This document shows positions 6,461-62,767 of a stretch of 64,000 nt of DNA, one piece after another. A model generated the notes under the pieces. It was given only the letters and a program-made list of their open reading frames with translations, ran no database searches and was not told the DNA's origin. Every line of letters begins with the position of its first letter. The first letter of the stretch is position 1. The DNA is taken from positions 24,819 to 88,818 of the forward strand of contig JAFXVM010000006.1 in assembly GCA_017524525.1 (NCBI GenBank), in the 5' to 3' direction. The DNA comes from Alphaproteobacteria bacterium. Lineage in GTDB: Bacteria > Pseudomonadota > Alphaproteobacteria > Rs-D84. The translations under genes were made by a program, and so were the position numbers.

Positions 6461-6590
6461 GAAACGCATGTTCATTATATATTTTCGGTTTATAAAATGC
6501 AATTATTTAATTTTTTTATTTTTATGCAAAAAAACTCTGGACATACTTATGTAATTTTTTCTAAGATAAAGATATATATAAAGGGAAAGG

Positions 6591-9500
6591 ATGGAAAAAA
6601 CACGGTTTTTTGCATGTTTTGTGCGTATGTTTAACGCGATGTGTTTCGCGATTTGTGCTGTGTTGTTTTCTTCAAACGCTTATTCAACTTGTGCAACTGG
6701 TTATCATGAACAGACCAATCCTTTAGATTCTACTATCTATAATAAAAAAATGGTTGGTTTTATGTATAGAGACCCAACTACAGAAACAGATTTTGTTTCC
6801 TATGGAACTAACTACCATACAACTAACTATGCTACTGGTATATGGGTATCAGCAATGAAAAATCCTGGTTCTCAACTTATGGAAGACACTTTTGTTGGTG
6901 GTCATGCATTCTGCGCAGCAACAGGTAGCGAAAATGATTATCATAAATCCAGGACAACTTTCGCGACATCAAACAACATTACAACAACAGAACCCGGCTC
7001 TTATTGTTGGTGTCAACTTTATGCATTATATGTATACAACTGGCAATATTTTTCTGGAACATGGGTGGCTCTTAACAACCTGGGAAGTCATGACAATTGT
7101 GCAAATAATACCTGTGCACAGGAATGCGCAAATGAAATGCATAACAACCCATCGTTCCGTCAGGCTATTTATTCTGTGCCATATTGTGTTGCTGATGATA
7201 CACCACATATATATCCTATAAACTATTATAATGTCGCGCACGCTACGTGGAATTTAAACCAAAATCACCCATATGGTTACACCACTGGGCAAGAAATAAC
7301 TTTAGGAATTCCATCTCGACAAAATTATGATTTTGTTGCTTGGTGCGATAATGCAGAATTAACAGAAAACTGTATGTTTACAAAGACTATACCTGCAGAT
7401 TCTGTCGGGACAAAATCTTTTTATGCAAAATGGGATTTTGCAAATTCTGATTGCCAAGATGGCTATAAACATGTTTGCTTGATAAACTTTGATGTATTAA
7501 ACCAAAACAGATTAGGATATGCATATAAGCCGATTGATGGTTCTGAAGTTCAAACTGAAGGTGACAAAACAACAGAAACATACAATTTGACCCAACCTGG
7601 TGAATGGGGTGTTTCTTTTGAACACGGGGACTTGAAGGGCATATCTAAGTGTGCTACTACCGCATCTACTTCTGATGGGAACGGTCATCTTTGTTGGTGC
7701 AAAACAACAGATTTTATACCTTCCGACACAGAAGACACGACGTGTCATTCAGAGACAGGACTTTGGACATATTCTGATGATCTCGTGAACGATAATCATT
7801 GTTCTAAATACTGCCCGCTAAGCTGTGTTAAAAAAAATCCTGTCACAGATAACTTATTCGGTAGGAACTCTTATTTTTGGGAATATTTTGCGAACGAAAA
7901 TCTTTCTGAGTGTGTGATTGATAAATATAAAATAAATTATGTATTGAACGGTGGCCTTTTCCCTAATGAACGACTTTCGTATATATATTTGAATCGTGTA
8001 AATGATGTATCTGCACCAACAACATACCAAATCACAGATACTGTTCTTATACCGCGCCCAGCACGAGAAAATTTTGTCTTTGGCGGATGGTACACAGAAC
8101 CAGATTTTTCTGGAGAACCTATTTTTGATGGTTTTGGCCCAGGAGAATTTGGCAACATAACACTTTATGCGAAATGGATAGAAAAAACTTGTTCCGAACA
8201 TTACACTTTGTCTTATCCTGCAAACATTGAAGGCCATTATATCTACAGCGGCAACACATGGGAAGTAACCTTTCCTTTTGGTGTCGTATCAGGAACAGGT
8301 TATACATCACAGTGGAACAAAAACAGATGTGTCTGCAAAGCAACAAGCTTTACACCAAAGAATGGAACAACACAAGATATTGTGTTTGCACCGGAAGGCG
8401 CTGCTGGTAGAACCAAAAATTGTGCCTATTATTGTTCGTACGATATTGCACATGATATTTATACCAGAACACCTACGTTTGCAGGAACGGTGCTTCAAGA
8501 CCCTGTTTGCTTACCGATTGAATATACAATCCATTTCGAATCAAATGGTGGAACAAGTTATAGTGATAGACACTACAACGTTGAATCTGATAATATAACT
8601 CTACCAGAACCTGCGCGCAGAGGATATCACTTTGATGGCTGGTATGAAAACGAGGACTTGTCAGGCACAAGCGTCACAACAGTTTCTTCAGGAACACCGG
8701 GCAACAAAACATTTTATGCCAAATGGAGTTTTGTTGGTTGTCCTGCAGGATATGTCGCACAAGATACAGATTCTGGCAAAATCTGTCAACCAATTACCTA
8801 TACGATACATTTTGTATCTAATAGTGTACTAAATTTTGATGATATACCATACACCATCGAATCAGAAGACATAGAATTGCCTACTGATATTTCGGAACAA
8901 AACGGACTGCCATTTGTTGGCTGGTATGAAGACGACAGTTTTTCAGAACCAGCCATTACACTTGTCCCCAAAGGTTCAACTGGCGATAAAATTTTCTATG
9001 CAAGATGGTTACAAAACACGTGTAGCACAGTTAATACAACCGCTAATAATTTGATTAGTTTGGTGGATGTAGAAACCCGCGGTATATCCACGTACAATTT
9101 TAACCACGGAGATTGGTTTGTTATCTTTGATTACGGCAAATTGCAAGGTAGAGGGATATGCAGCAATATGACAGGGGACATCGGCACAAAAGCAGATACT
9201 GTTACAGAATCAGAAAACGGTTCTAATTGTTGGTGTAATATAACTAAATTCACCCCCGCAAACGGTATAATAAAAGAAGCAACTTCTCCGTGGTTTTCCG
9301 TTGGTAGCCAGTCTGATTGTTCAAAAACCTGTGCTACAATATGTGGTGCATATACTTTTAAAAATCATAATAATTTTTATACTGTTGTAAAACCTGCGTA
9401 TTATTTAACCAATGTTTGTAATGCGCCAGTGTATACTATACATTATAATTCTAATTACGGGACAGAATACGAAGATCAACAATACACAGCTATTTACGAC

Positions 9501-12500
9501 ACTATAACATTACCGACACCAACTCGTGCTGGTTATGCTTTTGCCGGATGGTATGACAATGACAATTTTGAAGGAGAACCTGTGACACAAGTCGCGTCTG
9601 GTTCTACTGGCAACAAAACATTTTGGGCGAAATGGAACTTTATTGATTGTTCGACAGGATATATAGAGCAAGAAACAAATGGTGTAAAAACCTGTGTGCT
9701 AGTTAAACATTCTATTACATATATAGATGAAGATACAGAACTAGACTTAGAACCATCAACTTATGATATCACCACACTTGGAACAAGTTTGCCGTCTGCG
9801 CCACAAGGGTATTCAAATTTTATTGGTTGGTGTTTAGATTCTTCTACTTGTTTTTCAACCATTAATAAAATACCAACTGATTGGACAGGCGACAAAGTTC
9901 TTTACTTAAAAAAATGCCCCACAAACTATAAACTTGGGACACCTTTTTCTGTTGATAGTCGCGCAACAAAATGGGCAGCAAAGTCGGCATTGACTGGTGA
10001 TGCAACTTCAGCCTCAGCTTATGGATTAACAACTCATGGCGAATGGGGAGCAACTTTTGATTCTGGTTATATAGTTGGAACATCTTTATGCAGTCAAACA
10101 CCGGGGGGCACAAGGGGCGCAGTCGGTCAACCAGACGAGACTGGCGAAGGTGACACGAAGTATTGTTGGTGCAGAGTTACAAAATATGGTTTTCCAGAAC
10201 GAGAAGTCAATACCACTAAATGGGTCGCAGAGAACAACACAACAGACAATGTCTCCGCAGAATATTGTAATGGTTGGTGTGCTTATAACTGCGCTCAAAA
10301 AGCAGTGGCACTTACGTCTAATACTACTAGAGTAAACATGGCCACCATGTGCGTACCTGATTCTGAATACACAATAAATTATGTGTTAAACGATGAAAAC
10401 GCTGTTTTCCCGGTCACAGCTATAAAAGTACCGCATTCCTATATTTCTAGTGATTTACCAATCAGTTTAGAAAATGCTATACCTGTGCGTCCTTATTATA
10501 CATTTGAAGGTTGGTACGACAATGCAAATTTTGAAGGAACCGCTATCACAGAAATACTAAGCGGTGCAAATCAGGATATTACTTTGTATGCTAAGTGGTC
10601 GTGGACAGGTTGCCAAGACGGTTCATATTTAGATTCATCAACTAATACATGCGAAACGTGTCCGGATGGTTATATATCTAACGGGAAAACAGCAACCAGT
10701 AAAAACGATTGTTATGTTGAATGGAATTGCTCGGAAAACTTAGCTGGTTGCCCTCAAAATGCGACTTGTACATATATCGACCCTGACCACTTGTCTGGAA
10801 TCGATTATTATGGCAACAATACCCCACACTGCGAAATAAACGCTGTCTGCAATGCTGGCTATGTATCAAATAATGGTGCATGCACAGAACAAGAATACCC
10901 TATACAATACATCATTGATGGCGGAGATTTTCTTGGCACTCTTAATCAAAGCAATATACCGCGCACTTATACTGTTAGTTCCGTCATAGATTTATCAGGT
11001 ATAGTGGCATCACGTTCTGGATACACTTTTGAAGGATGGTACGACAATTCAACATTTGAAGGTTCTGCGATACCAAATTTATCAAATTTAGCACCTGGGG
11101 GAATCACGCTTTACGCGAAATTTGAACCCGTTGTATGTACTGTCATTTATGATAACGAAGGTGACGTAAGTCAAGAAACTTATTCTGGACAAAGCGTTAT
11201 TACTTTGCCAGTGCTTAGAAAAAATTCGTACACATTTGACGGTTGGTGCGAAGAAGATTTGGACACCTGCCCTGGTGGTCCAAAACAAACATTAACTGCC
11301 AGAAACGAAACAGTGAATTTATATGCTAAATGGGGTGATAAAAATTATACCATCACTTATATGGACGGGAATAATACGTTGTCACTTTTGGAACCAGAAT
11401 CTTATACAGAAAACAAATTGCCAGTAGATTTACCAACAACCGCATATTCAAGCAATGATGATTCTGTGTTTGACGGTTGGTATAACAATCCAGAATTAAA
11501 TGGGGATGCTGTCACAGAAATTCCTGCGGGTGCACAAGTGACAAACAAGATATTTTATGTAAAATGGCGTCCAAAATATTATGCTATAACATATATGGAC
11601 GGCGACATAAATGTGACAGCATCAATGCCTTTGATTGAAACAACAACCAGCAATGGTGAAGATATAACACTGGGAGAATTATCCGAAAAAAACGGTATGG
11701 CTTTTGTTGGTTGGTGCGACGATGCACAAGGTAATAATTGTTCTATGACAAAAAGACTTTATGCTAATACACCTGTGATTTTGTACGCACAACGCGAAGA
11801 AGCCACTTATCATATTACTTATAAAAATGGCGACACAGATATTACAAATGATGTTGCACCAGAATTTAGGACATACACTGTTAACAACCCGATTGTGTTA
11901 CCTGGTGCCAATGACGTGTCCGTTGAACATTATGTTTTTAATAATTGGTTGGACGAACATGATACAGTGATTAACACACTGCCATCGCAAACTGTTCCTA
12001 ATGGCGACTGTGTTTTACAAGGGAATTTTAGCCCTGTTCAATACACACTTTCGTTCACAGAAGATTCTATATCAAATATGCCTGCGTCTTCTGTCACGTA
12101 CAATATTGAAAACCTACCTAATTTGAATGCTCGTACACCAACAAATCCAGAATATGTATTCGTTGGATATAAAGATGCTGTTAGTGGTGAAATAATTTCT
12201 GCTATTACGGCCGAAAACGCAGGCAACATTGAATTAACACCAGAATATTCATACGTATCTTGTGACACCGGTTTTAAAACCCGAACATCAAACTCTGCCG
12301 TTTGGAACACCGCAAGAAATGGTATATTGAACAATTATTATGTGACACACCCCACAGCAAACGGTAGTGTATCTAGAGTATACAAACGGAAACCAACATC
12401 AAATTACACCATACCAACAGCCCCAACGTCGGGTTCAAATGCGCGTGCTGTTTGGGTAACGTTGTTTGACCAAGGACAAAGCAACCATGCTGAAATATAT

Positions 12501-15500
12501 GCTATGGGTGAAGCGAGTTGTAATTCAATTGCAGGTGTTGGGTATGAAACAGGCTCGGTAATGTTTTCTTCTTCCCGCCCAAGCAACGATATGAACAATA
12601 TAGCATCCACTGGTAATTATTGCTGGTGCCGTTTAACAAGTTATAAACCAGACAATCAGATTGTGTCAATCCAAGATACAGATTGGATTTATTTAAAAGA
12701 ATTTAGTTCTGCTGAAAATTGCGCTTCGCAAGGTAACGAATATGGTTCTCAATCTTGTGCTGCAAAATGTGGCGAAGCAGTAAGAACAAACGCCTTTTTC
12801 CGTTCACAGATATTTGATGATTTAGGTATATGCGCCGTTGGTATATACGATATTCGTTACAGATTAAATGGTGGCAATTGGGTGCAGTCTGATTCAATTA
12901 ACTGTGCTGAAAATGAATATTTTGATGACAATTCTAATGAATGTAAACCGTGCGCAAACGGGGAAAATTCAAGTGGTCATTCAAATTATTGTATTCCTGT
13001 AGAAACTTCTATGAATTATCATGCTATAAACCTGCCCCAGCCAGTCAGGACAGGATACGATTTCGCCGGATGGTGTGACGATGCAGATTTAACTGTTAAT
13101 TGTAAAACTGAAAAGGTTATTCAAACAGGCACCACCAACGATGTTTATGTTTATGCAAAATGGACACCAATAAATTATCAAATAACATACAATCTTGATG
13201 GTGGCACTTTGCCAAGCGATGTTTCTAACCCAACCGTATATCATATTGATGATACTATAGAATTGCCAATTCCAACCAAAACCGATTATATTTTTGATGG
13301 TTGGTATGAATGCGCAAATTATGAATGCAACAAAGTTTCTGTTTGGGGTCCCGATGAAACCGATGAAGACAAACAATTCTGGGCCAAGTGGAATATTGGT
13401 TCTTATACAATCACTTACGACAGACACGGTGGTGTTTTTGATGCAAATGTTGCAGACACACAAACATATACTGTTAATGACACCTCTAATAACAATTATT
13501 TAACACTTCTGAAACCTAGAAGACAGGGCTATGACTTTGTCGGCTGGTGCCTTGAAGAAGAAACACCATATCAAGAATGTGGTACAGAAGAAATAATCAC
13601 GGACGAAAGCACTTCGGGATGGAGTGGTGATAAAAAACTTCATGCAAAGTGGAATCTGGAAGATTATACCATAACCTATTATGATAACAATAACCCTATG
13701 ACTTTGGAAAACACAGAATGGGAAGACAACAGTACTGTGATAAATGAATATAATGTATCTTCTAAATATACATATCCAATACTATTACCAAAGCCTTTGA
13801 AATCTGGACACAGATTTGAAGATTGGTACAGCACAGTGAATTTAGATAATGACCCAGAAAATTCAACACCAATCAGCGAAATTGCTTTTGGAACAACTGG
13901 CAACAAAGATTTTTATGCAAAATGGGCTTGTGCTGCTGGATATTATGGTGACGGAACAACGTGTACAATTTGTGAGGCAGGCACCTATAGCGACACAACC
14001 AATGCCGCAAATTGCACAGCATGCCTATTAGGCCACACTTCTGCTGCGGGTGCCACCAGTTGTGTGGCGTGCACAAACACCGAACATGTCACAGAATGGG
14101 CTGATGCTCTATGCGGAATCAGTCAATGTGATACAGGTTACAAAATCGAATCCACACAAATAAGCGCAATTTCAACCGATGAAAATGGTATATATATGGC
14201 TTACACAATGCATGCGCCAGAACATCTTCAAAACAATAACATTGGTTGTTATAAAGACGGCGTTTATAATGATTGTAATGATTCTGTCTTTGATAACGTG
14301 TCAAAACCGCACGGTTGGCGTGTTGTGTTCCGTTATGGAACAGTGACGGGAACTTCTGTGTGCAGCACGACAGGTTCGGCACTTAATGTTGCTAACGCTA
14401 ATCAAGATATCTATGATATAAACACCCCTGATACAACAAGCGAAGGTGGCGCATATTGTTGGTGCAAAGCATTAGATTACGACAACCAAAGCCTTGCTGG
14501 ATCTTGGGTTTTTGCAACGGATTTTTCGGGTGCACATGCTACTTGCGAGAATTCTTGTGCGATGAATTGCACTGGTAAAGTATATCGCAATTCTGCGTTT
14601 AGGGAAGTTATGTTTGGTAACACCTATCTCAATAACGTCACGTTGGATACATTAACGTTTGATGAACCTTTGGACAAAGCTATGTGTGTACCAAAAGTTT
14701 TCCCAATAGTTTATCATAATATTGATGAGGTTATTTGGAACAACGGTGAAAACCATCCTGATTTTTATACTTTATTACAAAACGATGTCACCATTGGTCG
14801 TCCAACACGTCAAGGCTTTGTATTTATGGGTTGGTGTGAAACAGAAAATTGTGTTGATGAAACGCCACAAAATAATTATAGTTTTATCCCGAACGATAAA
14901 GCGGAAGGTCAAATAGATTTGTATGCTCAATGGACTTGTGCTGCTGGATATTATAAAAATGGCTCTGCGTGCAATGCTTGTCCACAAGACCCATACGGAA
15001 TTCAATATACATCACCAAACGAAAATACAGATGGAATCAACAGTTGTTATTATAGTTGCGCTAATGTATTTGAAGTTTTTTGTCCTGAACATTCTATCGA
15101 CTGCTTATACACTGGCGATTCAAATGCGACAAATTCTTATGGCTATGAAACCAACAATTGCACTATAAGTTTTAATTGTGACCCAGGTTACGGTGTTGAC
15201 GGTGCTTTGTGTTCTTTGAATACATATTATATAACTTATGTCGATACACTTGAAGATATTGCCAGTGAAAATCGTAAAACAAGCGAATCTTACACTGTCA
15301 ATGATTTACCTGTATCGAAATCGGTATCGCCAGAAAATACACACACCGGTTATGATTTTGACGGTTGGTGCGAAACAGATGAATTGACAGGCGATTGTTT
15401 AACAACAATTACAATTGATGTTAATACTATAGGCGATAAAACCTTCTATGCTCGTTGGACAACACAAAATTATACTATAACCTATCATAATAACGGTGTT

Positions 15501-18500
15501 GATTCAGAAGATTCTTATACATACGGAACAGGAAAAAATTTGAACGCGCCTGAGACACCAACGGGTTATGTTTTTGCGGGCTGGTATACAAACAGTGATT
15601 TTTCTGGCGAAGCAGTGCAAACAATCGCTGACACAGAAACAGGTTCTAAAGAATTCTGGGCAAAATGGACGTGTACTGCTAATTATTATCACGATTCTAA
15701 CACTTGTACGGCGTGTCCTGATTTATATCCAACATCTGTTGTCAATGACAACGAAGGTATTGGAAAATGTTATGCACAGTGTGAAACCATAACAGAATGT
15801 CCAGAACACGCTACATGCTCTTACGCAAATACAATTGACGACAAAGATTACTATAAAGAAAATGCAACAGAAACTTGTGTATCTGGTATTGAATGTGATA
15901 CGGGCTATGGTCTAGAAAACGGTGCATGCGTATTACAAACATACACTGTCACATTTATGGATGGCGAAACACAATTGCGCCAAGAATCATACACGATTAA
16001 TTCTGTTGAACCTATTGTTTCAACAACGCCGGGGAATTCAGGTGGCGAATTTGCTGGTTGGTGTGACAACGAAGATTTAACAGGTGAATGTTCAACGACC
16101 GTGACTGTTCAACCAAGTGATGCGACCGACAAAACATTTTATGCAAAGTGGACATGCGCAAATGGATATTATGGTTCTGCTTGCACACAATGTCCAGAAG
16201 GATACAGAAACACCGATGCAGGCGCAGCAAGAATAACAGATTGTTATAACATATATACTTGTCCAACAGAATGCCCGCCACATGCAGTGAGTTGCACTCA
16301 GCCAACAAAAGAATTTGTTAAGAATTATTATGGCGCAACAGAATTTGAATCTTGTGATATGGATGTAGTTTGTGAAGACGGGTACGAAGCAAAAACTATT
16401 GATAAGATTTACAAAAATAAAATCACTTATGAGAAGTATTTAAACGGCGATTCTTATAAAAAATTAGACAAACAAACCTTTGGTTTCTACGCTTCGTATT
16501 ATAATACACCAGAAGCAATAACTGAAACAAGCCATCTGTTGAATGGTGAAACGGAACAGTTTTTTGATTACGGCTCTGTACGCATGGTTTCCACATGTGA
16601 TAGCGCCGCCTATAGCATATACAACCACGTATTAACTATTAACAACGAACCTGGAAGTAATTGTTGGTGCAAATTTACACAATATTCACCAGACGGAATA
16701 AATTATACAAACCTTGATTTTCCATGGAAACCTGGGTTGCCATGGCAAACCTATGAGCAATGTCTGGATTCCTGCGAGTGCGGTGGTGTTCCTGACAGTT
16801 GGTGGAGAAACCAAAAAGTTTGTAGTGCAAGAGAATATACAATTTATTTTGAAACTAATGGTGGTTATATTGAAACAAATAACAACTATATGCTTTATGA
16901 TGTGACAGCCGACCCGTTTGATTTACCAAAACCAACACGTCCGGGATACGATTTCGCCGGATGGTGCAACAATGAAAACTTAACTGGCGAATGTCCAATA
17001 ACAGTGACAATTCAACCAAGTGATGCAGAAAACAAAACATTTTATGCAAAATGGACACCTGTTGTTTGCGATGAAGACATGGTTGTAGCAACAAGGTTTA
17101 ACACAACAAAAGAACCAATAGCCTATTCATCCATAGAAATTGATGGTGTTGTTCGCACGACTGAAATGTTTTATCCTGGCAGATTACCAAACGCATACGG
17201 TTTAACAGAAAGCGGTACCTGGGCAACAGAATACGATTACGGAACCTTATATGGCGAAGCCGCTTGTAAGGACGCACCATATTATATGGGTGACTATAAA
17301 GCCAGTCCGGTTCCAGACGAAGTGTTTAATACATTTGCTGATACACCGTTTGTAACAATTGATACTGACGATTCTGTTTCCGCAACATGTTATTGCAAAC
17401 CAACTGCGTTTAAACCAACTTTTGGTTCGAAACAGGCTTTGTCCAACAATTGGAAAGAGCACGTTCATACATCCGCCTATGAGTGCAATATACATTGTGC
17501 ATACTATTGTTCACAGGATAAATCACGCGCAACTATACATCTGCTCGGTGAATTTACAAACACAAATTATTGTGCGTACAGAATTAATTATTATCATTTG
17601 AATGATGGGGAATTTGTGGCACCTGCTTTGCATCCAGACCATTATGATACAGGCGACAGGTTTACAATTGGGCAACCTGTGCGTCGTGGTTATACGTTTG
17701 CTGGCTGGTGTGTAGGTCAAGACAGGTGCAACAACACCCAAGAAAGTTTTGAAGTAAATTCTTCAACTGTGGGTGCTGTTGATTTATACGCACAATGGAC
17801 AGCGGGACAATACACTATTACTTATAATATGATGGGTGGCACACCAACATATCAACCAGAACAAAACACTGTCGGTATTATGGTGTATTTTCCAGACGAC
17901 CCAACAAAAGAAGGTTATGATTTTGCAGGCTGGTGTCCGAACAGTGAAACCTGTGAAAACCCTATAAAAACACAAACATGGGGTGGCGCAACAGAGGATA
18001 TAACCATGTATGCACAATGGGATATTAAAACTTATTATATTACCTATGTGTTTAATAATGGCGATGCAAGCGTGACAGAAGAACAAGATTTCAACGAACA
18101 AGTCATATTACGCAAACCAACAAAATCTGGTTTTACATTCGATGGTTATTGTGTTGATACAACAAATTGCAATCCATTGACGTTGCCTGTTGACAGCACA
18201 AGCGATTCTTGGGTTCACAGTGCTTGGAACAGAGATTTAACGCTTTATGCGAAATGGACACAAAATGTCGCAACCGAAGAATGCACGTCAAAGGCTTGGC
18301 TACATGTTGGCGAAGACAAAGCTTGTTTATCAAAAACCCCTGTTGAAAAACCAGTATTAGTAATTCAGGGTAAACACGGCAAATATTATTTACAAGCAAC
18401 CAAGGATTCAAATTTACCAATGAACAAAGATACAACGAAGCAATTACGTATACAAAAAGCAAATGATATATATAATGTACATGATGAAACCGTGTCCAGA

Positions 18501-18533
18501 AACGATACAGATAATTCTTCAACAGGGGTGTAA
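6591..18533 (+). CDS. giant secreted repeat protein (3980 aa): about 25 Listeria-Bacteroides (Flg_new) repeats, at least 8-9 novel Cys-rich 'CWC' modules, ephrin-receptor-like Cys repeats, conserved C-terminal domain
   Basis: Uninterrupted 11,943-nt ORF with an RBS AAGGGAAAGG and a signal peptide. It contains recurring ...YTITY..GG....LP.PTR.GY.F.GW........FYAKW units, recurring GEWG..F..G...G.S.C.....G.YCWC..T modules, and CAAGYYGDGTTCTICEAGTYSD-type repeats. Confidence 0.85.
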   Translation: MEKTRFFACFVRMFNAMCFAICAVLFSSNAYSTCATGYHEQTNPLDSTIYNKKMVGFMYRDPTTETDFVSYGTNYHTTNYATGIWVSAMKNPGSQLMEDTFVGGHAFCAATGSENDYHKSRTTFATSNNITTTEPGSYCWCQLYALYVYNWQYFSGTWVALNNLGSHDNCANNTCAQECANEMHNNPSFRQAIYSVPYCVADDTPHIYPINYYNVAHATWNLNQNHPYGYTTGQEITLGIPSRQNYDFVAWCDNAELTENCMFTKTIPADSVGTKSFYAKWDFANSDCQDGYKHVCLINFDVLNQNRLGYAYKPIDGSEVQTEGDKTTETYNLTQPGEWGVSFEHGDLKGISKCATTASTSDGNGHLCWCKTTDFIPSDTEDTTCHSETGLWTYSDDLVNDNHCSKYCPLSCVKKNPVTDNLFGRNSYFWEYFANENLSECVIDKYKINYVLNGGLFPNERLSYIYLNRVNDVSAPTTYQITDTVLIPRPARENFVFGGWYTEPDFSGEPIFDGFGPGEFGNITLYAKWIEKTCSEHYTLSYPANIEGHYIYSGNTWEVTFPFGVVSGTGYTSQWNKNRCVCKATSFTPKNGTTQDIVFAPEGAAGRTKNCAYYCSYDIAHDIYTRTPTFAGTVLQDPVCLPIEYTIHFESNGGTSYSDRHYNVESDNITLPEPARRGYHFDGWYENEDLSGTSVTTVSSGTPGNKTFYAKWSFVGCPAGYVAQDTDSGKICQPITYTIHFVSNSVLNFDDIPYTIESEDIELPTDISEQNGLPFVGWYEDDSFSEPAITLVPKGSTGDKIFYARWLQNTCSTVNTTANNLISLVDVETRGISTYNFNHGDWFVIFDYGKLQGRGICSNMTGDIGTKADTVTESENGSNCWCNITKFTPANGIIKEATSPWFSVGSQSDCSKTCATICGAYTFKNHNNFYTVVKPAYYLTNVCNAPVYTIHYNSNYGTEYEDQQYTAIYDTITLPTPTRAGYAFAGWYDNDNFEGEPVTQVASGSTGNKTFWAKWNFIDCSTGYIEQETNGVKTCVLVKHSITYIDEDTELDLEPSTYDITTLGTSLPSAPQGYSNFIGWCLDSSTCFSTINKIPTDWTGDKVLYLKKCPTNYKLGTPFSVDSRATKWAAKSALTGDATSASAYGLTTHGEWGATFDSGYIVGTSLCSQTPGGTRGAVGQPDETGEGDTKYCWCRVTKYGFPEREVNTTKWVAENNTTDNVSAEYCNGWCAYNCAQKAVALTSNTTRVNMATMCVPDSEYTINYVLNDENAVFPVTAIKVPHSYISSDLPISLENAIPVRPYYTFEGWYDNANFEGTAITEILSGANQDITLYAKWSWTGCQDGSYLDSSTNTCETCPDGYISNGKTATSKNDCYVEWNCSENLAGCPQNATCTYIDPDHLSGIDYYGNNTPHCEINAVCNAGYVSNNGACTEQEYPIQYIIDGGDFLGTLNQSNIPRTYTVSSVIDLSGIVASRSGYTFEGWYDNSTFEGSAIPNLSNLAPGGITLYAKFEPVVCTVIYDNEGDVSQETYSGQSVITLPVLRKNSYTFDGWCEEDLDTCPGGPKQTLTARNETVNLYAKWGDKNYTITYMDGNNTLSLLEPESYTENKLPVDLPTTAYSSNDDSVFDGWYNNPELNGDAVTEIPAGAQVTNKIFYVKWRPKYYAITYMDGDINVTASMPLIETTTSNGEDITLGELSEKNGMAFVGWCDDAQGNNCSMTKRLYANTPVILYAQREEATYHITYKNGDTDITNDVAPEFRTYTVNNPIVLPGANDVSVEHYVFNNWLDEHDTVINTLPSQTVPNGDCVLQGNFSPVQYTLSFTEDSISNMPASSVTYNIENLPNLNARTPTNPEYVFVGYKDAVSGEIISAITAENAGNIELTPEYSYVSCDTGFKTRTSNSAVWNTARNGILNNYYVTHPTANGSVSRVYKRKPTSNYTIPTAPTSGSNARAVWVTLFDQGQSNHAEIYAMGEASCNSIAGVGYETGSVMFSSSRPSNDMNNIASTGNYCWCRLTSYKPDNQIVSIQDTDWIYLKEFSSAENCASQGNEYGSQSCAAKCGEAVRTNAFFRSQIFDDLGICAVGIYDIRYRLNGGNWVQSDSINCAENEYFDDNSNECKPCANGENSSGHSNYCIPVETSMNYHAINLPQPVRTGYDFAGWCDDADLTVNCKTEKVIQTGTTNDVYVYAKWTPINYQITYNLDGGTLPSDVSNPTVYHIDDTIELPIPTKTDYIFDGWYECANYECNKVSVWGPDETDEDKQFWAKWNIGSYTITYDRHGGVFDANVADTQTYTVNDTSNNNYLTLLKPRRQGYDFVGWCLEEETPYQECGTEEIITDESTSGWSGDKKLHAKWNLEDYTITYYDNNNPMTLENTEWEDNSTVINEYNVSSKYTYPILLPKPLKSGHRFEDWYSTVNLDNDPENSTPISEIAFGTTGNKDFYAKWACAAGYYGDGTTCTICEAGTYSDTTNAANCTACLLGHTSAAGATSCVACTNTEHVTEWADALCGISQCDTGYKIESTQISAISTDENGIYMAYTMHAPEHLQNNNIGCYKDGVYNDCNDSVFDNVSKPHGWRVVFRYGTVTGTSVCSTTGSALNVANANQDIYDINTPDTTSEGGAYCWCKALDYDNQSLAGSWVFATDFSGAHATCENSCAMNCTGKVYRNSAFREVMFGNTYLNNVTLDTLTFDEPLDKAMCVPKVFPIVYHNIDEVIWNNGENHPDFYTLLQNDVTIGRPTRQGFVFMGWCETENCVDETPQNNYSFIPNDKAEGQIDLYAQWTCAAGYYKNGSACNACPQDPYGIQYTSPNENTDGINSCYYSCANVFEVFCPEHSIDCLYTGDSNATNSYGYETNNCTISFNCDPGYGVDGALCSLNTYYITYVDTLEDIASENRKTSESYTVNDLPVSKSVSPENTHTGYDFDGWCETDELTGDCLTTITIDVNTIGDKTFYARWTTQNYTITYHNNGVDSEDSYTYGTGKNLNAPETPTGYVFAGWYTNSDFSGEAVQTIADTETGSKEFWAKWTCTANYYHDSNTCTACPDLYPTSVVNDNEGIGKCYAQCETITECPEHATCSYANTIDDKDYYKENATETCVSGIECDTGYGLENGACVLQTYTVTFMDGETQLRQESYTINSVEPIVSTTPGNSGGEFAGWCDNEDLTGECSTTVTVQPSDATDKTFYAKWTCANGYYGSACTQCPEGYRNTDAGAARITDCYNIYTCPTECPPHAVSCTQPTKEFVKNYYGATEFESCDMDVVCEDGYEAKTIDKIYKNKITYEKYLNGDSYKKLDKQTFGFYASYYNTPEAITETSHLLNGETEQFFDYGSVRMVSTCDSAAYSIYNHVLTINNEPGSNCWCKFTQYSPDGINYTNLDFPWKPGLPWQTYEQCLDSCECGGVPDSWWRNQKVCSAREYTIYFETNGGYIETNNNYMLYDVTADPFDLPKPTRPGYDFAGWCNNENLTGECPITVTIQPSDAENKTFYAKWTPVVCDEDMVVATRFNTTKEPIAYSSIEIDGVVRTTEMFYPGRLPNAYGLTESGTWATEYDYGTLYGEAACKDAPYYMGDYKASPVPDEVFNTFADTPFVTIDTDDSVSATCYCKPTAFKPTFGSKQALSNNWKEHVHTSAYECNIHCAYYCSQDKSRATIHLLGEFTNTNYCAYRINYYHLNDGEFVAPALHPDHYDTGDRFTIGQPVRRGYTFAGWCVGQDRCNNTQESFEVNSSTVGAVDLYAQWTAGQYTITYNMMGGTPTYQPEQNTVGIMVYFPDDPTKEGYDFAGWCPNSETCENPIKTQTWGGATEDITMYAQWDIKTYYITYVFNNGDASVTEEQDFNEQVILRKPTKSGFTFDGYCVDTTNCNPLTLPVDSTSDSWVHSAWNRDLTLYAKWTQNVATEECTSKAWLHVGEDKACLSKTPVEKPVLVIQGKHGKYYLQATKDSNLPMNKDTTKQLRIQKANDIYNVHDETVSRNDTDNSSTGV

Positions 18534-18884
18534 TGTAATTTATCCAAACTAGATACAAGTCTTACCGGCGCAAGTTACACACAAAATTCTGACGGCAGTT
18601 GAGCAACAACATTTAGCTATGGTGTTATTGGTGGTAATGCGATGTGCGGAACACGATGCGTTGGTAATAAATCTGTCCTGAACGGCGTACCAGATGGAGC
18701 AGGAAGCTGTTGCTATTGTCAAATAACCAGTTATAAACCCCAGAATGAAGACACCTGCTTAATATCTTCTGCCCCTTGGGTGCAATCAATGCAATTTTCT
18801 AGTTGTACCCCATATAATTGTGCTAGCAAATGTAGTTCTCTTGTCAAAGATTGGGCGGAACTTCGCAATTCTATGTATAATTAA
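18534..18884 (+). pseudogene. relic/fragment of a CWC-module paralog, in frame with the giant ORF but separated by TAA (18531) and TGA (18600)
   Basis: The same reading frame continues after the giant stop: CNLSKLDTSLTGASYTQNSDGS*ATTFSYGVIGGNAMCGTRC...GSCCYCQITSYKP...W...C...C...C. The TGA sits exactly where the module's invariant Trp (TGG) belongs. Confidence 0.6.
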
Positions 18885-18891
18885 TAGATGA

Positions 18892-20085
18892 TTAAACATC
18901 AAAATCGTATGAATTGATAGATTTTACGATGGCGGCGACGAGTTTATTTTGATGGTCGTCTGATTTCAAAAGTTTTTCTTCGTTTTTATTGGACAAATGT
19001 CCCAATTCTATCAATGCACCCGGCACGGTTGAACGCAACACAGCGAATGGTGCATGACGGACAGACGGTCCCTTTTGTTGTTGAATCGATGCACGAGATA
19101 AAGATTTTGCACAACTGTTTGCGTATTCTTCACTTAATTCCGCCACAGCGTGTTGTTGCAAGGCAGACAAAGCAACACGAATATCTTTGGAAAATTGTTC
19201 AAACCCATTTACATCGATTTTATCAGCAGCATTTTCTGAATCTGCCAATTTTTGCGCTTCTTCGTCCGAAGCCTTTTCAGACAAAGTGTACACAGAAAAT
19301 CCGCGCATATCACGGCTAGGGTTCGCATTAGCGTGCAAAGATATAAACAAATCTGCACGTTTCTTTTCCGCAAATTCCGCCCGTTCAGCCAATTTCAAAA
19401 ACGAATCATTAGAACGAGTTAAATATGTTTTATAACCCGCACTGTCCAATTTAGATTTTAACTTTTTCGCAACTGACAAAACCACAGTTTTTTCTTGAAC
19501 ACCAGATTTTCCAATACACCCCGGATCTTTTCCACCGTGTCCAGGGTCAATTACTATGACATGTTGTGTTTGTTTCGTTTGTGGTTTTGCTTCTTCTTTC
19601 TTTTGTGTTGGTTGCTGGGTAGCCGCCCTGCCCGTTGTTGCAGTGCTCGTTATCCCTCGACCAGTTCCAGATTTAAAATCAATCACCAGACGATAATCAT
19701 TATCGCCATTTGGTTCCAAAATCATTATTTGTTTTTTATCAATCGCATCAATCGCCCCAGAAAGCGCAGCCGCAACCTGTAAAGTAGAACCATTTTGAAT
19801 TTGTGTAATTCTTTTAATCAAAGTTCCTTTGGCTAGATTTGTTTTTGCGTCTGTTTTTCCGTTTGTATTAGATAAATTTACATTTAATTGTTTATCGCCA
19901 TAAGACAAAGTATATGATGGTCGCGACGCCGTTTCAATTACCAGACGTGTCTTACCCCCGGGTTGTGTCCCCGTCCGAATTGAACGTACTGTGTTTGGCG
20001 CAGAAAACGCCACACGTGGTGCAATACCAATAACCAACGCACTGAAACTGACTGTTTTAAAAACCTGCCTTCTCGATATTTTCAT
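18892..20085 (-). CDS. amiC: N-acetylmuramoyl-L-alanine amidase (AmiC-like, AMIN + Amidase_3), Tat-type signal
   Basis: MKISRRQVFK twin-arginine motif and VIVIDPGHGGKDPG...LFISLHANA amidase_3 motifs. The ATG at 20085 is preferred over the upstream extension. Confidence 0.8.
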   Translation of the reverse strand: MKISRRQVFKTVSFSALVIGIAPRVAFSAPNTVRSIRTGTQPGGKTRLVIETASRPSYTLSYGDKQLNVNLSNTNGKTDAKTNLAKGTLIKRITQIQNGSTLQVAAALSGAIDAIDKKQIMILEPNGDNDYRLVIDFKSGTGRGITSTATTGRAATQQPTQKKEEAKPQTKQTQHVIVIDPGHGGKDPGCIGKSGVQEKTVVLSVAKKLKSKLDSAGYKTYLTRSNDSFLKLAERAEFAEKKRADLFISLHANANPSRDMRGFSVYTLSEKASDEEAQKLADSENAADKIDVNGFEQFSKDIRVALSALQQHAVAELSEEYANSCAKSLSRASIQQQKGPSVRHAPFAVLRSTVPGALIELGHLSNKNEEKLLKSDDHQNKLVAAIVKSINSYDFDV

Positions 20086-20149
20086 GATTGGTATTATATC
20101 AAAAAAACGATTGTTTTTCAAGAAAAGTATATGATTTTTTTGACACAAA

Positions 20150-20178
20150 AAAACGCCCGATTGGGCGTTTCGTTTTTA
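20150..20178. terminator. rho-independent terminator
   Basis: aaaaacgcccgattgggcgtttcgttttt between amiC and the next gene. Confidence 0.55.
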
Positions 20179-20188
20179 AATAATTGTT

Positions 20189-21436
20189 TTATCTGCTGGC
20201 ACAATTAGCAAACGCTTGTGCAACAATGGATGTTTCTGATTGAGTCAATGTTGACACAGGTATTGTATAACATCTGGCGCTGTCGCGAATAACAAAGACT
20301 TTTGTGCCACGCTTATATGCCTTTTGCATTGCATCCATTTGCGAACTGGTCAAGAAAGAGTTTTGAGTCAAAGCAGAACTCGTTAACCCAGCCTGAACCA
20401 CCTGATTAGCAGTTGCATAATCGTATATTTCAGACATAGACGTCACTTCCATAAACACGCTTTGGTCTGCATACGGATTTTGTGCGTTATTTTGAGCCGC
20501 TGGGAACGTAGCACCAGCAATAACATTAACCGCAGCCTGTAAATTAGGTGTTGTATTAGTTGTTGTAGCATGTTGTACAGTGTTTAATTGCAAATTATCA
20601 CCACAAGCAAGATTCATACGGTTAGTATAACTTGCCAAGACAGCATCCACCGCCGCTTCCCAATTTGCACCTTTGGAATTTGGTTCCAAACTTACCACTT
20701 TTTCCGCCCATCCCCAGATATTAGCACCAACATTACCTGCGTTTGCAAAACGAGTTACCATTTCAGCAGAACCACCAGATACCCCAGCACCACAATAATC
20801 AGTTAATTGTGTTGTTAACATACTGGTTGTTTCGTTGCCATACGCAAGCGCGACAGAATGACAAGCCATCGCAGCTTCCAATTCGCGACGACGTTGTATG
20901 CACAAATCTGAATGAGATTTAGTTAATTTATCAGCCATATTAGCCATGGACAAATACGACATTAATTCTTGTTGAACATAAGATGGACATAATCTGGCGG
21001 CTGTGTTCATGCCACCCGTACCATTTTTAGTCATTGTGTTATATTGTGGCAACAGAATCGAAGTATCCTTTTGCAAACAAAGCAAAGCATAATTATACAA
21101 TTCTATTTCTGTTGCATACATACAACGACCAGAAGTTTTTCCAGGAACAACAGCCACATCACCACAATAATCTGTTAGACATTTATATATCTTTTCACGA
21201 CATGCAGTATCAACATCAGGTTGAGTAATCATAAAATACGTATTACGCTGATTTTGAATATACGCATTAGCAACACCCTTTTGACCACGTGTTCCATTTG
21301 TTGATGCCCCAGCCGAATTTGTATAAACTGCAGCACGCGCACTGTCGTTCGCAGTGGTTCCTGCCGAAACTGCAATCGCACCATTCGCGGTTAAAAAAGC
21401 CCCTATAAAACCAAATGCTAGTATCTTTTTGTTCAT
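20189..21436 (-). CDS. secreted Cys-rich hypothetical protein
   Basis: 415-aa ORF with signal peptide MNKKILAFGFIGAFLTANGAIA and many Cys. No family recognised. Confidence 0.55.
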   Translation of the reverse strand: MNKKILAFGFIGAFLTANGAIAVSAGTTANDSARAAVYTNSAGASTNGTRGQKGVANAYIQNQRNTYFMITQPDVDTACREKIYKCLTDYCGDVAVVPGKTSGRCMYATEIELYNYALLCLQKDTSILLPQYNTMTKNGTGGMNTAARLCPSYVQQELMSYLSMANMADKLTKSHSDLCIQRRRELEAAMACHSVALAYGNETTSMLTTQLTDYCGAGVSGGSAEMVTRFANAGNVGANIWGWAEKVVSLEPNSKGANWEAAVDAVLASYTNRMNLACGDNLQLNTVQHATTTNTTPNLQAAVNVIAGATFPAAQNNAQNPYADQSVFMEVTSMSEIYDYATANQVVQAGLTSSALTQNSFLTSSQMDAMQKAYKRGTKVFVIRDSARCYTIPVSTLTQSETSIVAQAFANCASR

Positions 21437-21552
21437 AAAGTTCCCTCTCGTTACGAATTATTTTATCATATTCACAAACAAAACGCAACAGAAGTTTAAT
21501 TAAAAAAATACAAAAAAGTTGATTTAAACAAAAAAATTGGTATATTTTGAAT

Positions 21553-22624
21553 ATGACAGTTGTGAACAACGATATTTTAAATCAAATCTTTGACGATATT
21601 TCTTCGTTAAGGGGGTTTCTTTGACCCAGAAAAACTCCAAAAAGAAATCAATGAATTAACTGAAATTTCTAACCGCGCAGATTTATGGGACAATCCTGAT
21701 TATGCACGCGGGATTTTACAAAAAAAATCTGGTTTAGAAAAACAATTGGCTGAATTGATTAATCTGGAAACCGAATATAAAAATCTTTGTGATTTATATG
21801 AAATGTCCCCAGAAGACGCTGATGTAAACAATGCCATCAATGATTTAGCAATCGCTGCACACAAAGCGAAATTTATTACTTTATTCAGCGACCCGATGGA
21901 CAACAATGGTGCTTTTTTGTTTATTCAATCTGGCGCAGGCGGGACAGAGGCACAAGATTGGGCACAAATGTTATCTCGTATGTACACCAGATGGTGCGAA
22001 AGACACGGTTTTTCTATTGAAACCGTTGAAGAACACGAAGGCGATGTTGCTGGAATAAAAAGCATAACCTTTCGTATTTCTGGCGAACGCGCTTTTGGTT
22101 GGTTAAAAAATGAAATCGGTGTTCACAGATTAGTTCGTATTTCACCTTTCAACGCGAACGGAAAACGCCAAACCAGTTTTGCTTCTGTGGATGTGTGGCC
22201 AGACATAGATGATTCTATTGAAATTGAAATAAACGAAAAAGATTTAAGGATAGATACTTACCGTGCAAGTGGCGCCGGGGGACAACATGTTAATAAAACT
22301 GATTCAGCGGTTCGAATCACGCATATCCCGACAAATACCGTTGTGACTTGCCAGAATGAACGCAGTCAAATTCAAAACAAAGAAATGGCTATGAAGATGT
22401 TGCGTTCTAAATTATACGAATTAGAAATGGAAAAACGCGCCGCCGAAGAAGATGCCGCTAAGGCTGCTCAAAAGAAAATTGAATGGGGCAGCCAGATACG
22501 CAACTATGTTCTTTACCCTTATCAACTGGTTAAAGATGTGCGGACAAATGTAGAAAAGACAGATTCTGTCGCTGTTCTGGACGGCGATTTAGATGATTTT
22601 ATGCTGGCAATGCTGGCAAAATAA
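21553..22624 (+). CDS. prfB: peptide chain release factor 2, requires programmed +1 frameshift at 21622
   Basis: Frame 1 reads [23 protein letters not shown], ending at the in-frame TGA of the canonical AGGGGG-TTT-CTT-TGA-C site. The +1 frame continues [25 protein letters not shown]... into the 21746..22624 ORF, which carries [19 protein letters not shown]. Confidence 0.9.
21610..21625 (+). promoter_or_regulatory. RF2 autoregulatory +1 frameshift site (internal SD-like AGGGGG + CTT TGA C)
   Basis: AGG GGG TTT CTT TGA C, identical in architecture to the E. coli prfB shift site. Confidence 0.85.
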
Positions 22625-22646
22625 TGTATAATAAAACCGGTTTCCA

Positions 22647-22723
22647 GCACCCATAGCATAACTGGATAATGCATTGCCCTCCGAAGGCAAAGACTGCAGG
22701 TTCGAATCCCGCTGGGTGCGCCA
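22647..22723 (+). tRNA. tRNA-Arg (anticodon CCG)
   Basis: Acceptor GCACCCA/TGGGTGC, anticodon loop CTCCGAA, T-loop TTCGAAT, CCA encoded. There is one T-stem mismatch. Confidence 0.8.
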
Positions 22724-22965
22724 TAAAACCAAAATCGGTTTTGCCGATTTTGGTTTTATGTTGTGTCAACCCGGGATGAGAACCTAGGTTCGACAACAAG
22801 TAGATTTTGGAAGTGCAACGCACCAAAATCGTTACGGTTGCCCCGCAGGCATATCATGCCAAGGAAATCCGCAGATAAACAATTAGAAAAATTAAAAAAA
22901 ATCGAAGTCTACAAGATTTTTTTAAATTTTATTTATTGTTTATCAAGACGCCGCTGGGTGCGCCA
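22708..22965. repeat. direct repeat of tRNA-Arg 3' end (15-16 bp core) flanking a ~230-bp AT-rich segment
   Basis: cccgctgggtgcgcca (22708-22723) and ccgctgggtgcgcca (22951-22965). The segment between them contains a GGTTCGACAA motif like the one in the tRNA-Ser downstream spacer. Confidence 0.7.
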
Positions 22966-22989
22966 TTTTTATCGATATATTAAATAAAA

Positions 22990-23022
22990 AAACAACCGAC
23001 ACAAAGGTCGGTTATTTTATTT
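22990..23022. terminator. rho-independent terminator
   Basis: aaccgacacaaaggtcggtt followed by a T-run. Confidence 0.55.
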
Positions 23023-23796
23023 TGTGTTTTGCGCTTTTAAATTAAAATTCTTTGGAACAACGCCATTATAAATTTGAAGTATTGAATAATACAAATCTTG
23101 GTCTTTATCTAATGCCGTCTTTACTATTTCAAACGCTTCGTTTATGCCAGATTCATATTCTTGTATTTCATCATTTTCAAGATTGTCTTTGTTTGCTAAA
23201 ACAATTGCCAAAGATTGTATTTTTTTGGTGTCCGCTTCGCTCATATTCGCCATTAACATAGTAGTCACCAACAAAGATAATTCTGGGTTATAATTTAATA
23301 AAGTATTGTATTGTAAACCTGGGTAAACTTTCTTCAAAATATCAAACAAACGAACAGATATTCTATTGTAAAATCTTTCGATGTCATATTTTCTTACCAA
23401 GCGTTGAGAATGAACAGTGGTTGCCAATCCCGCGCCAAAGCCCAGAAGTGTTCCAAAAAGAACAGACAAAGCAATTTGTATGTTTGCTTTTTGTTGGTTT
23501 TCAATACCCGCCTTTTCTTTTGCAGAATATGTGTGAAGTCCAGAAAAACTTCCAACAAGAACAGCTAGCAACGCCATCATAACATATTCTGTTTTCATTT
23601 TTTTTAAAATAGATACCAATGGTTCGGCAAATTTTGCGGCATTGTGTGCACGTGTTTTTGCAAAATCTTTGTTATTAAAATATTTATTTAAAAATTTTGC
23701 ACGTTCTGGTGTTTCGCGAACATGTGACGGGTTTAGTAAATTATTTTCTTTTTCATATTTTTGTTTTAATCTTTCATTTGGATCTGTTGCATACAT
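23017..23796 (-). CDS. hypothetical membrane protein (2 predicted TM helices)
   Basis: 259-aa ORF with hydrophobic segments MMALLAVLVGSFSGL and ALSVLFGTLLGFGAGLATTV. Confidence 0.5.
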   Translation of the reverse strand: MYATDPNERLKQKYEKENNLLNPSHVRETPERAKFLNKYFNNKDFAKTRAHNAAKFAEPLVSILKKMKTEYVMMALLAVLVGSFSGLHTYSAKEKAGIENQQKANIQIALSVLFGTLLGFGAGLATTVHSQRLVRKYDIERFYNRISVRLFDILKKVYPGLQYNTLLNYNPELSLLVTTMLMANMSEADTKKIQSLAIVLANKDNLENDEIQEYESGINEAFEIVKTALDKDQDLYYSILQIYNGVVPKNFNLKAQNTK

Positions 23797-23946
23797 TTTT
23801 TTGTTCCTTGTTTTAAACTAATTCTGCTAGAAAAACGCTAGCACACCATGTACGATTGTCAAGAATATATTAAAATCTTCTTGATTTTATTGCTGGATTT
23901 AGATAGCATTTGCGCATGAAAAATAAACTACAAAAAGGATTAATTC

Positions 23947-28976: not shown

Positions 28977-29551
28977 TGTTAAAAAAATCGATATATTTAC
29001 TGCCCTTTTTTGTTATGGCTTTTTTGTTTAATGCCGTTGCTGCCCCCAGCATTGGATTGTTGAAACAGAATAAATCTAATACCAATATTGCAAAAACTGC
29101 CGCAATTACCCCAAAAAAACAACCCGTAGCAACGCCAAATATTGCGCGTGCTATACAAAATTCAAACACATCAAATTTAAACAAAGCTTCATCTGCTGGT
29201 TCTGCTAGATTGCCTGCGTTATTAGGTAAGATTCCTTTGGCAAATCAAAATACAAATACAAACACTAATATAAACACTAATGTAAACACTAATACAAGCA
29301 CCAAGCCTGTTACCAGTGGTGTATCAGAAAGTACATTTAATTCACTGGTGCAAAGGGTGGAAGTGCTGGAATCCAAAAATGAAAACACAATCATAGACGT
29401 TGTCGAAAACGGTTCTGGCGCATATGTTAATGATGTTACAAAAGAAGGAAACGAATTAAATGTAACAAAAACAGACATATTGTATGTCCCTGTTAAGAAT
29501 GCAAGTGGCACGACCGTTCCTGGTAATGCAGAAATTTGGATTATAAAATAA
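28976..29551 (+). CDS. small secreted protein with Asn/Thr-rich linker, translationally coupled to the upstream gene
   Basis: Its ATG overlaps the upstream TAA (TAATG). It has a signal peptide and a low-complexity NQNTNTNTNINTNVNTNTS stretch. Confidence 0.6.
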   Translation: MLKKSIYLLPFFVMAFLFNAVAAPSIGLLKQNKSNTNIAKTAAITPKKQPVATPNIARAIQNSNTSNLNKASSAGSARLPALLGKIPLANQNTNTNTNINTNVNTNTSTKPVTSGVSESTFNSLVQRVEVLESKNENTIIDVVENGSGAYVNDVTKEGNELNVTKTDILYVPVKNASGTTVPGNAEIWIIK

Positions 29552-51337: not shown

Positions 51338-53340
<2,003 letters not shown>

Positions 53341-62672: not shown

Positions 62673-62767
62673 CAACGTTCTTTTTCTCTTTTACTTTTGC
62701 AGTATAATGTTTTGCAATTTTTTTTGCAACAACTAAAATTAATATTTAGGAATTTTTTTATTAAAAA

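Follow-up and report, generated by a model that had tools for sequence, protein, structure and literature searches.

A giant Flg_new repeat protein with an uncatalogued cysteine-rich module in an Rs-D84 alphaproteobacterium

The giant gene and its repeat architecture

The stretch of DNA analyzed here, referred to throughout as the window, comprises 64,000 nucleotides of contig JAFXVM010000006.1 (assembly GCA_017524525.1) from a bacterium of the alphaproteobacterial lineage Rs-D84. Its most prominent feature is a single open reading frame (ORF) on the forward strand, at 6591–18533, which runs through 3,980 codons with no internal stop, as the initial annotation of this DNA had proposed. We refer to its product as the giant protein. 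It alternates 25 Listeria–Bacteroides (Flg_new) repeats with nine copies of a Cys-rich module, designated CWC, together with five further Cys-rich units, and it closes with a small tail domain. Given the G+C content of the window (38%), a frame of this length cannot be a product of chance. Two other genes of the same family are found in the window, and the three together occupy about a quarter of its length.

Immediately 5′ of the ATG lies a purine tract, GGGAAAGG, which agrees with the ribosome-binding site claimed for the gene earlier; a weak promoter-like site is found at 6538–6567, also 5′ of the ORF. The N-terminus, MEKTRFFACFVRMFNAMCFAICAVLFSSNAYS/TC, has the layout of a Sec-type signal peptide (aa 1–32, 6591–6686), comprising basic residues, a hydrophobic part of ~20 residues, and an A-x-S site, and on inspection the signal peptide of the initial annotation is thus upheld. 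The mature form would have a mass of ~440 kDa and a pI of 4.4; it is acidic and hydrophilic, rich in Thr, Asn, Ser, and Gly, and contains an even number of Cys residues (160).

To the 12.4 kb of DNA that include the gene and the region downstream of it, both a 367-kb ENA contig and an independent Logan assembly correspond with zero mismatches. The NCBI protein MBR6010156.1, from a metagenome-assembled genome (MAG), is identical to the giant protein over 3,968 residues from residue 13 onwards (100% identity), the NCBI annotation having placed the start at Met13, and the protein is also identical in a partial ENA contig; the matching assemblies come from different samples. Within the gene, DNA repeats reach at most 83% identity over at most 109 nt, and there are no tandem arrays. 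Because the DNA and protein recur unchanged in other assemblies and the internal repeats, which are old, have diverged, mis-assembly of the ORF, including the collapse of repeats that had been named as its possible undoing, is excluded. The entry MBR6010156.1 carries the automatic name “InlB B-repeat-containing protein”; as an object the gene, already deposited under this generic name, is therefore not novel.

The giant protein belongs to the Flg_new repeat proteins: it scores 526 bits against Pfam PF09479 (cutoff 27), in 17 stretches, and 384.7 bits against NCBIfam TIGR02543 (cutoff 20.95), and a hidden Markov model (HMM) built from its own repeats resolves 25 copies, matching the number of about 25 estimated initially. 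Two subtypes predominate, a Cys-bridged “GWC...C” form (13 copies) and the classic “GWY” form (10 copies). Beyond Flg_new and Flg_new_2, a Pfam scan of the giant protein at E ≤ 0.01 returned nothing. Along the gene, where all features lie on the forward strand, seven single repeats are dispersed among CWC modules 2–5 between 7215 and 10601 (7215–7436, 7923–8180, 8520–8729, 8796–9011, 9429–9638, 9705–9911, and 10365–10601; Pfam and own-repeat HMM), accompanied by two 22-aa Cys hairpins (8730–8795 and 9639–9704). These are followed by a tandem array of six repeats (aa 1435–1882, 10893–12236; own-repeat HMM), a group of four (aa 2085–2446, 12843–13928), the first of which is split by a short insert with three Cys, five more between 14706 and 17057 (14706–14936, 15225–15461, 15468–15671, 15939–16154, and 16833–17057), and three terminal repeats (aa 3662–3890, 17574–18260; own-repeat HMM).

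The initial annotation had also described a block of ephrin-receptor/furin-like, “eukaryote-like” Cys repeats. Such repeats are present, but they form no single block: five dispersed units of ~65–97 aa, with 9–10 Cys each, are found instead. Unit K1 (aa 1338–1434, 10602–10892), K3 (aa 2783–2878, 14937–15224), and K4 (aa 3028–3116, 15672–15938) have 10 Cys; K2 occupies aa 2447–2511 (13929–14123), and K5 (aa 3189–3259, 16155–16367) is fused to CWC module 8. The pattern common to all five is a unit of ~90 aa that begins CxxGYY...CxxCP and holds 10 Cys. The eukaryote-like character holds for one marginal Pfam match: K2 is the sole unit above the cutoff for Ephrin_rec_like (PF07699), where aa 2447–2512 score 27.9 bits (gathering cutoff 23.1, E 2e-6). 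The other four reach at most 13.7 bits for this family or give only weak EGF/TNFR-like matches.

The CWC module and the C-terminal tail domain

A profile search identified nine CWC modules in the giant protein, consistent with the eight or nine copies counted before. The earlier length of ~110–120 aa fits the conserved core but not the whole modules, which span 111–195 aa. The core reads G.W..tF.YG...G.a.CS...(variable loop)...G.YCWCk.T.y.P......WVF......C...C...C......FR. Modules 1 and 2 are at aa 33–203 (6687–7199; profile E 2.4e-25) and aa 287–444 (7449–7922; E 1e-30). Module 3, at aa 533–643 (8187–8519; E 2e-12), is the shortest, a CVC variant missing two core Cys. It is followed by module 4 at aa 810–946 (9018–9428; E 3e-26), module 5 at aa 1108–1257 (9912–10361), which was the copy used for structure modeling, module 6 at aa 1890–2084 (12258–12842; E 2e-27), module 7 at aa 2512–2702 (14124–14696; E 3e-30), module 8 at aa 3260–3414 (16368–16832; E 4e-19), and module 9, a CYC variant, at aa 3492–3664 (17064–17582; E 5e-23).

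CWC is a domain in its own right, widespread and not catalogued. With a profile made from the 13 CWC copies of the window, 1,666 representative clusters (50% identity level) were found at E ≤ 1e-3, 736 of them at E ≤ 1e-10. When 58 diverse modules were compared with Pfam-A 2025, not one matched any family except the flanking Flg_new; CWC had no match in NCBIfam 20 or PHROGs, the CWC profile had none among PDB sequences at E ≤ 10, and a scan of viral contigs found no CWC relatives. A homologous-protein search with the diverse CWC alignment A2 produced 971 candidates, none of them at E ≤ 1e-5. The possibility that CWC is a divergent Flg_new repeat was ruled out (hhalign probability 0.2%). The AlphaFold2 (AF2) model of module 5 has a predicted local distance difference test score (pLDDT) of 81 and a predicted template modeling score (pTM) of 0.76, and no structural neighbor of it was found in a fold comparison that did not cover AlphaFold DB. 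The description of the module as unrecognized is confirmed by these searches.

In the model, the first and last strands lie at residues 6–8 and 147–149, and a helix at residues 116–130 bears C119, C123, and C127. The six core Cys are kept in at least 95% of 385 CWC modules, and where they are missing they tend to be missing in the pairs C73–C133, C99–C137, and C101–C141 (profile columns of the same 385 modules; the counts are small). This pattern suggests that the C-x3-C-x3-C helix is fastened to the sheet through three disulfides. The loop between C73 and C99 varies from 4 to 86 residues, C101 and C133 are 29–32 residues apart, and the other spacings are nearly fixed. CWC stands at the extreme C-terminus in 122 of the 185 retrieved family proteins, which supports a terminal display of the module.

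The tail domain (aa 3893–3974, 18267–18512; consensus C.SG.WLHIG.D.ACL..TK...PAL....YYL.MT...KL....YNVHD.SV) is common to the giant protein and a 1,060-aa paralog in the window, with a BLASTP E of 5e-5 and profile E values of 1e-24 to 1e-31. Sharing of a C-terminal domain with a paralog was already noted in the initial annotation; its length is ~80 aa rather than ~65. The AF2 model (pLDDT 87) has six strands that form three β-hairpins. It has no neighbor in the PDB, and the domain has no Pfam match even at E ≤ 10. In about 17 giant relatives the domain closes the protein at the C-terminus, and in the family proteins P0043, P0049, P0046, and P0101 it is internal and followed by another module, a terminal CWC in P0046 and P0101 and an Endonuclease I domain in P0043 and P0049 (PF04231, E 2.6e-26). 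A homologue search with the tail alignment retrieved six short fragments only; the domain was found nowhere outside this protein family, and it therefore does not behave as a general sorting signal. A role as a basic cell-wall anchor was considered and rejected, given that the pI is 9 here but 4.6–9.4 across homologs.

Beyond the stop codon the frame continues into the remnant of a tenth, terminal CWC module (18534–18887, forward strand; E 3e-17), with the same DNA in two assemblies; this module was absent from the initial annotation. The TAA at 18531–18533 separates it from the giant ORF, and a second stop, TGA at 18600–18602, replaces a near-invariant Trp. P0046, evidently an ortholog fragment from another strain, is 82% identical to aa 2758–3968 of the giant protein, and there an intact linker runs into an intact terminal CWC. 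Because the tenth module is disrupted by nonsense codons here but intact in P0046, the giant gene in this strain reads as a truncated form, with the terminal CWC a presumptive pseudogene remnant. Recoding of TGA to Trp at 18600 was considered and is unlikely: RF2 is encoded in the window, and the giant ORF has no in-frame TGA, every Trp in it being TGG by definition of table-11 translation. This stop is more simply read as a nonsense mutation of TGG to TGA.

Distribution and diversification of the family

The initial annotation could not place the domain combination of the giant protein in a described family. It is, however, no one-off: Flg_new with CWC is how a large family known from metagenomes, that of the 1,666 CWC clusters, is normally built, and many of its members have 2,000–6,200 aa. 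Lengths across the family range from 150 to 6,200 aa, architectures are highly variable, and many proteins of ~250 aa consist of a leader, one Flg_new, and one CWC. About 61% of full-length members pass a crude leader test. All genome matches are MAGs, from the guts of ruminants or other animals, labeled Alphaproteobacteria, proteobacterium, or Candidatus Enterousia, and related MAGs carry 2–5 family loci each. By its shared family members, an indirect criterion, the uncultured ruminant-gut bacterium of the window is related to the reduced-genome Rs-D84/Candidatus Enterousia MAGs. Genomes of the Enterousia/Rs-D84 group are smaller than 1 Mb and lack respiration and many biosyntheses, and an obligate symbiotic or parasitic life is predicted for these bacteria, whose envelope proteins are uncharacterized (PMC12306168).

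In the window the family is further represented by the 1,060-aa paralog (25794–28976, forward strand; matching MBR6010162.1), with a signal peptide, two CWC, about five Flg_new, Cys repeats, and the tail domain, and by a small 410-aa paralog (61443–62675, reverse strand), with a signal peptide, one partial Flg_new, and two CWC, one of them terminal. Overlapping the stop of the 1,060-aa paralog (ATGA) is a 191-aa ORF (28976–29551, forward strand) with a signal peptide and a low-complexity Asn/Thr-rich region; it has no Pfam or PHROG match and is kept beside the paralog in another sample (L029). The segment 60001–62000, which spans the small paralog and the ~1 kb, apparently without coding sequence, that separates it from an HI0933-like gene, has a G+C content of 0.45, compared with a window mean of ~0.38.

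Family genes occupy conserved chromosomal loci and differ enormously between close relatives. At loci adjacent to the amidase gene, housekeeping proteins are 79–94% identical to those of the window, but the giant proteins only 24–33%. At one of these, L024, flanking identities at the amino acid level to window genes are ~93% for RF2, 92% for RNase J, and 79% for the amidase, and the family protein has 6,218 aa, ends in Endonuclease I, and shows 24–33% local identity to the giant protein; at another, L016, the amidase is 81% identical, and the family protein, at least 2,258 aa long, has the tail domain at its end and shows 25–29% local identity. Positions 6001–24657 of L024, on an ENA scaffold from the rumen (STEW19), are syntenic with 6591–25692 of the window, and the 6,218-aa Flg_new/CWC gene lies there in the opposite orientation. 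The small paralog has a positional ortholog at L008 (3227–4432), flanked by RNase E/G, PIF1 helicase, and HI0933-like genes; the flanks are 85–99.5% identical, the family protein is 59% identical overall, and its terminal module gives a tblastn match of 38%. On these sequence comparisons, the small-paralog locus looks like a cassette-replacement hotspot.

Up to aa 3664, the giant protein is 88–100% identical to P0046, and beyond this point (window position ~17583) the identity is 51–63%. Such an abrupt drop suggests a recombination breakpoint inside the giant gene at about aa 3665. P0064 resembles a chimera of segments like the 1,060-aa paralog and segments like the giant protein. P0036 (L027 2022–2780, GCA_018064405.1) is a 252-aa protein with a phage tail-fiber-like N-terminus, TGSYNDLSNKPTIP, and a terminal CWC; on its contig, phage capsid genes lie ~6 kb downstream, and genes for LpxI and an outer membrane protein (OMP) β-barrel are nearby. 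A phage tail-fiber origin, suspected from this N-terminus, is unsupported, as PHROGs gave a marginal match only.

Proposed function, alternatives, and neighboring genes

We consider it somewhat probable that the giant protein is a Sec-exported, disulfide-rich, fast-diversifying surface fiber used for cell attachment. The leader-like N-terminus, the 160 Cys, and the presence of Flg_new, known from surface proteins, all support an extracytoplasmic character; the role as a surface adhesin is one that we infer. After export through Sec, the Cys would be oxidized in the periplasm. The 25 Flg_new repeats would then form an extended stalk from which each CWC projects as a compact side branch, a β-sheet with one helix whose N- and C-termini are adjacent and whose Cys at i, i+4, and i+8 would be stapled to the sheet by three disulfides. 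The length-hypervariable loop, together with the variable N-terminal region of the module, may provide a binding surface. From a stalk with such binding surfaces follows the proposal of a multivalent adhesin by which the bacterium would hold on to a host surface or a partner cell, and recombination among paralogs and alleles would change its specificity or antigenicity. The tail domain may join the stalk to a terminal module that can be exchanged, CWC or, in relatives, Endonuclease I; in this strain the terminal module appears to have been lost through nonsense mutations.

Several points weigh against this proposal. No LPXTG, GW, lipobox, or β-barrel anchor was recognized in the giant protein; a lipoprotein anchor had been considered, and neither the giant protein nor the 1,060-aa paralog has a canonical lipobox on inspection. 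The genes around the giant gene within the 64-kb window are all housekeeping genes, with no secretion genes and no type I secretion system (T1SS) genes among them. A surface location would require a folded, disulfide-bonded protein of 440 kDa to cross the outer membrane; the contig of P0036 carries LpxI and an OMP β-barrel, which implies a diderm envelope for that relative. The signal peptide was judged by eye; localization, expression, and binding are predictions; and the disulfide pairing of CWC was drawn from very few Cys-lacking modules and not from model coordinates.

A structural coat or protective envelope, similar to an S-layer or glycocalyx, would be a dense mesh that varies solely to evade immunity or phages. 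The great size of the protein and its acidic, Thr/Asn/Ser/Gly-rich composition would suit a coat, as would the fraction of the window filled by the family and its quick diversification, which is expected under phage or immune pressure. We nevertheless regard a coat as rather unlikely, because the Pfam scan found no lattice-forming or anchoring domain, lengths of 150–6,200 aa with variable architectures are unlike those of coat proteins, and a terminal, variable CWC fits recognition at a tip better.

A second alternative is that the giant protein is a scaffold which presents or delivers a terminal effector, in nutrient scavenging or in the manner of polymorphic toxins, and that the effector has been lost here, leaving a decaying or neutral gene. 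Relatives at the syntenic locus end in the tail and Endonuclease I, the internal tail is followed by an exchangeable module in the four proteins named above, and the terminal module is broken by two nonsense codons in this strain. Against this stand the remaining 3,980 codons, which have no stop among them and do not differ between assemblies of different samples, the ~17 relatives that naturally finish at the tail domain, and the lack of an enzyme domain in most family members. No toxin or enzyme domain terminates the giant protein, and no immunity-like gene was seen among its neighbors, although no search by immunity-family name was made. We consider such a scaffold unlikely, and a surface fiber for attachment remains the reading that we prefer.

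It is improbable to a greater degree that the protein, once exported by Sec, remains in the periplasm or is released there, where it might serve as an envelope spacer. A Sec-type leader accompanied by no recognizable outer membrane translocation signal or partner, a Cys-rich chemistry suited to the oxidizing periplasm, and the apparently diderm envelope of relatives would be in line with this. However, Flg_new and Cys-rich repeats of the EGF/ephrin type typically occur in extracellular proteins, hyper-diversification at fixed loci is typical of exposed ones, and by a rough estimate an extended chain of ~40 domains would be far longer than the periplasm is wide. Finally, an assembly artefact or non-functional ORF, conceivable for a repeat-rich gene in short-read metagenome assemblies, is very improbable indeed in view of the identical DNA in the ENA and Logan contigs, the identical protein in the NCBI MAG and partial ENA contig, the divergence of the internal DNA repeats, and a 3,980-codon frame that could not persist unselected in AT-rich DNA.

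If the giant protein is a surface fiber for attachment, by analogy it would work most like the giant repeat adhesins. The RTX/T1SS giant adhesins, such as LapA, SiiE, and the ice-binding adhesin, have long stalks of small β-rich repeats with ligand-binding modules, and a long repeat stalk with interspersed or terminal binding modules is proposed here likewise. The giant protein nevertheless has a Sec-type leader and not a C-terminal T1SS signal, has no RTX, BIg, or Cadherin-like domains in Pfam, and is extremely Cys-rich, unlike T1SS substrates. It shares with the Flg_new/InlB B-repeat proteins, including the internalins, 25 bona fide Flg_new repeats and its NCBI name, but has no leucine-rich repeats, cap, GW, or LPXTG anchor; it scores 104.9 against internalin_A (cutoff 1600) and 82.1 against internalin_H (cutoff 1050), through the B-repeat part only. 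Its host is an alphaproteobacterium, half of its repeats are Cys-bridged, and unrelated CWC modules are interleaved with them.

Large cargo proteins of the type IX secretion system (T9SS) carry a small C-terminal sorting domain, Por_Secre_tail, and T9SS is not known in the Alphaproteobacteria. The giant protein likewise combines a Sec leader with an all-β C-terminal domain of ~70–80 aa; this tail, however, has no Pfam or fold match, is internal in several relatives, and was found in one family only. Neither an autotransporter nor a YadA_anchor translocator was matched in the giant protein in Pfam, and the tail is polar, of ~80 aa, with three hairpins. On these sequence and fold comparisons, the giant protein is not an internalin, RTX adhesin, autotransporter, or T9SS cargo. 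Its Cys units have CxxGYY...CxxCPxG motifs reminiscent of Ephrin_rec_like, furin/TNFR-like, and Giardia variant surface proteins (VSP), with weak matches to TNFR_ELAPOR1, EGF, and VSP, but four of the five fall below the Ephrin_rec_like threshold and belong to the family-specific ~90-aa, 10-Cys type. Reports on Giant1–5 of Apilactobacillus kunkeei (PMC12863079) and on the giant genes of predatory/episymbiotic bacteria (10.1101/2023.11.21.568195) offer a parallel, in that bacteria with small genomes, associated with hosts or partners, devote a sizeable part of the genome to rapidly evolving extracellular proteins of 3,000–8,000 aa; these come from another phylum and have other domains, and no sequence relationship to the giant protein was found.

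The literature and databases searched hold no description of the CWC or tail domains, of the family that the two define, or of the way in which this family evolves. Bacteria of the Rs-D84/Enterousia type are common in livestock guts and predicted to be cell-dependent, and their mode of attachment is unknown (PMC12306168); with its conserved loci and a diversification far faster than that of the surrounding genes, the CWC family is a testable candidate for it. With the CWC and tail families defined, better annotation would be possible for thousands of metagenomic proteins that at present are named only “InlB B-repeat-containing”, and a Sec-exported, heavily disulfide-bonded 440-kDa protein reaching the surface of a diderm cell raises a problem of export. 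One may speculate further that CWC and tail form a new surface-display system, the main partner-recognition apparatus of these partner-dependent, reduced-genome gut Alphaproteobacteria (Rs-D84/Enterousia-like), with exchangeable cassettes (CWC binder or nuclease) behind the tail and an export route other than types I, II, V, and IX; we rate this wider proposal as a rather long shot.

Downstream of the giant gene, the module remnant is followed by the convergent amidase gene. Sizeable ORFs with no Pfam match at E ≤ 1e-5 are found on the reverse strand at 1515–2312, 20189–21436, 23017–23796, 34434–35846, and 39125–40108; one of these, a 415-aa ORF adjoining the amidase gene, is 83% conserved and syntenic in L024. 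Amid otherwise housekeeping genes, the window encodes an ankyrin-repeat protein (29608–30249, reverse strand); ankyrin repeats are a eukaryote-type domain frequent in bacteria that live with eukaryotic hosts. A permuted two-piece alphaproteobacterial tmRNA is found at 52983–53336 (forward strand). With its upstream end, the longest table-11 ORF for the Obg GTPase (51939–53270, reverse strand) runs into the tmRNA, and the real Obg start therefore probably lies further downstream than in this ORF call.

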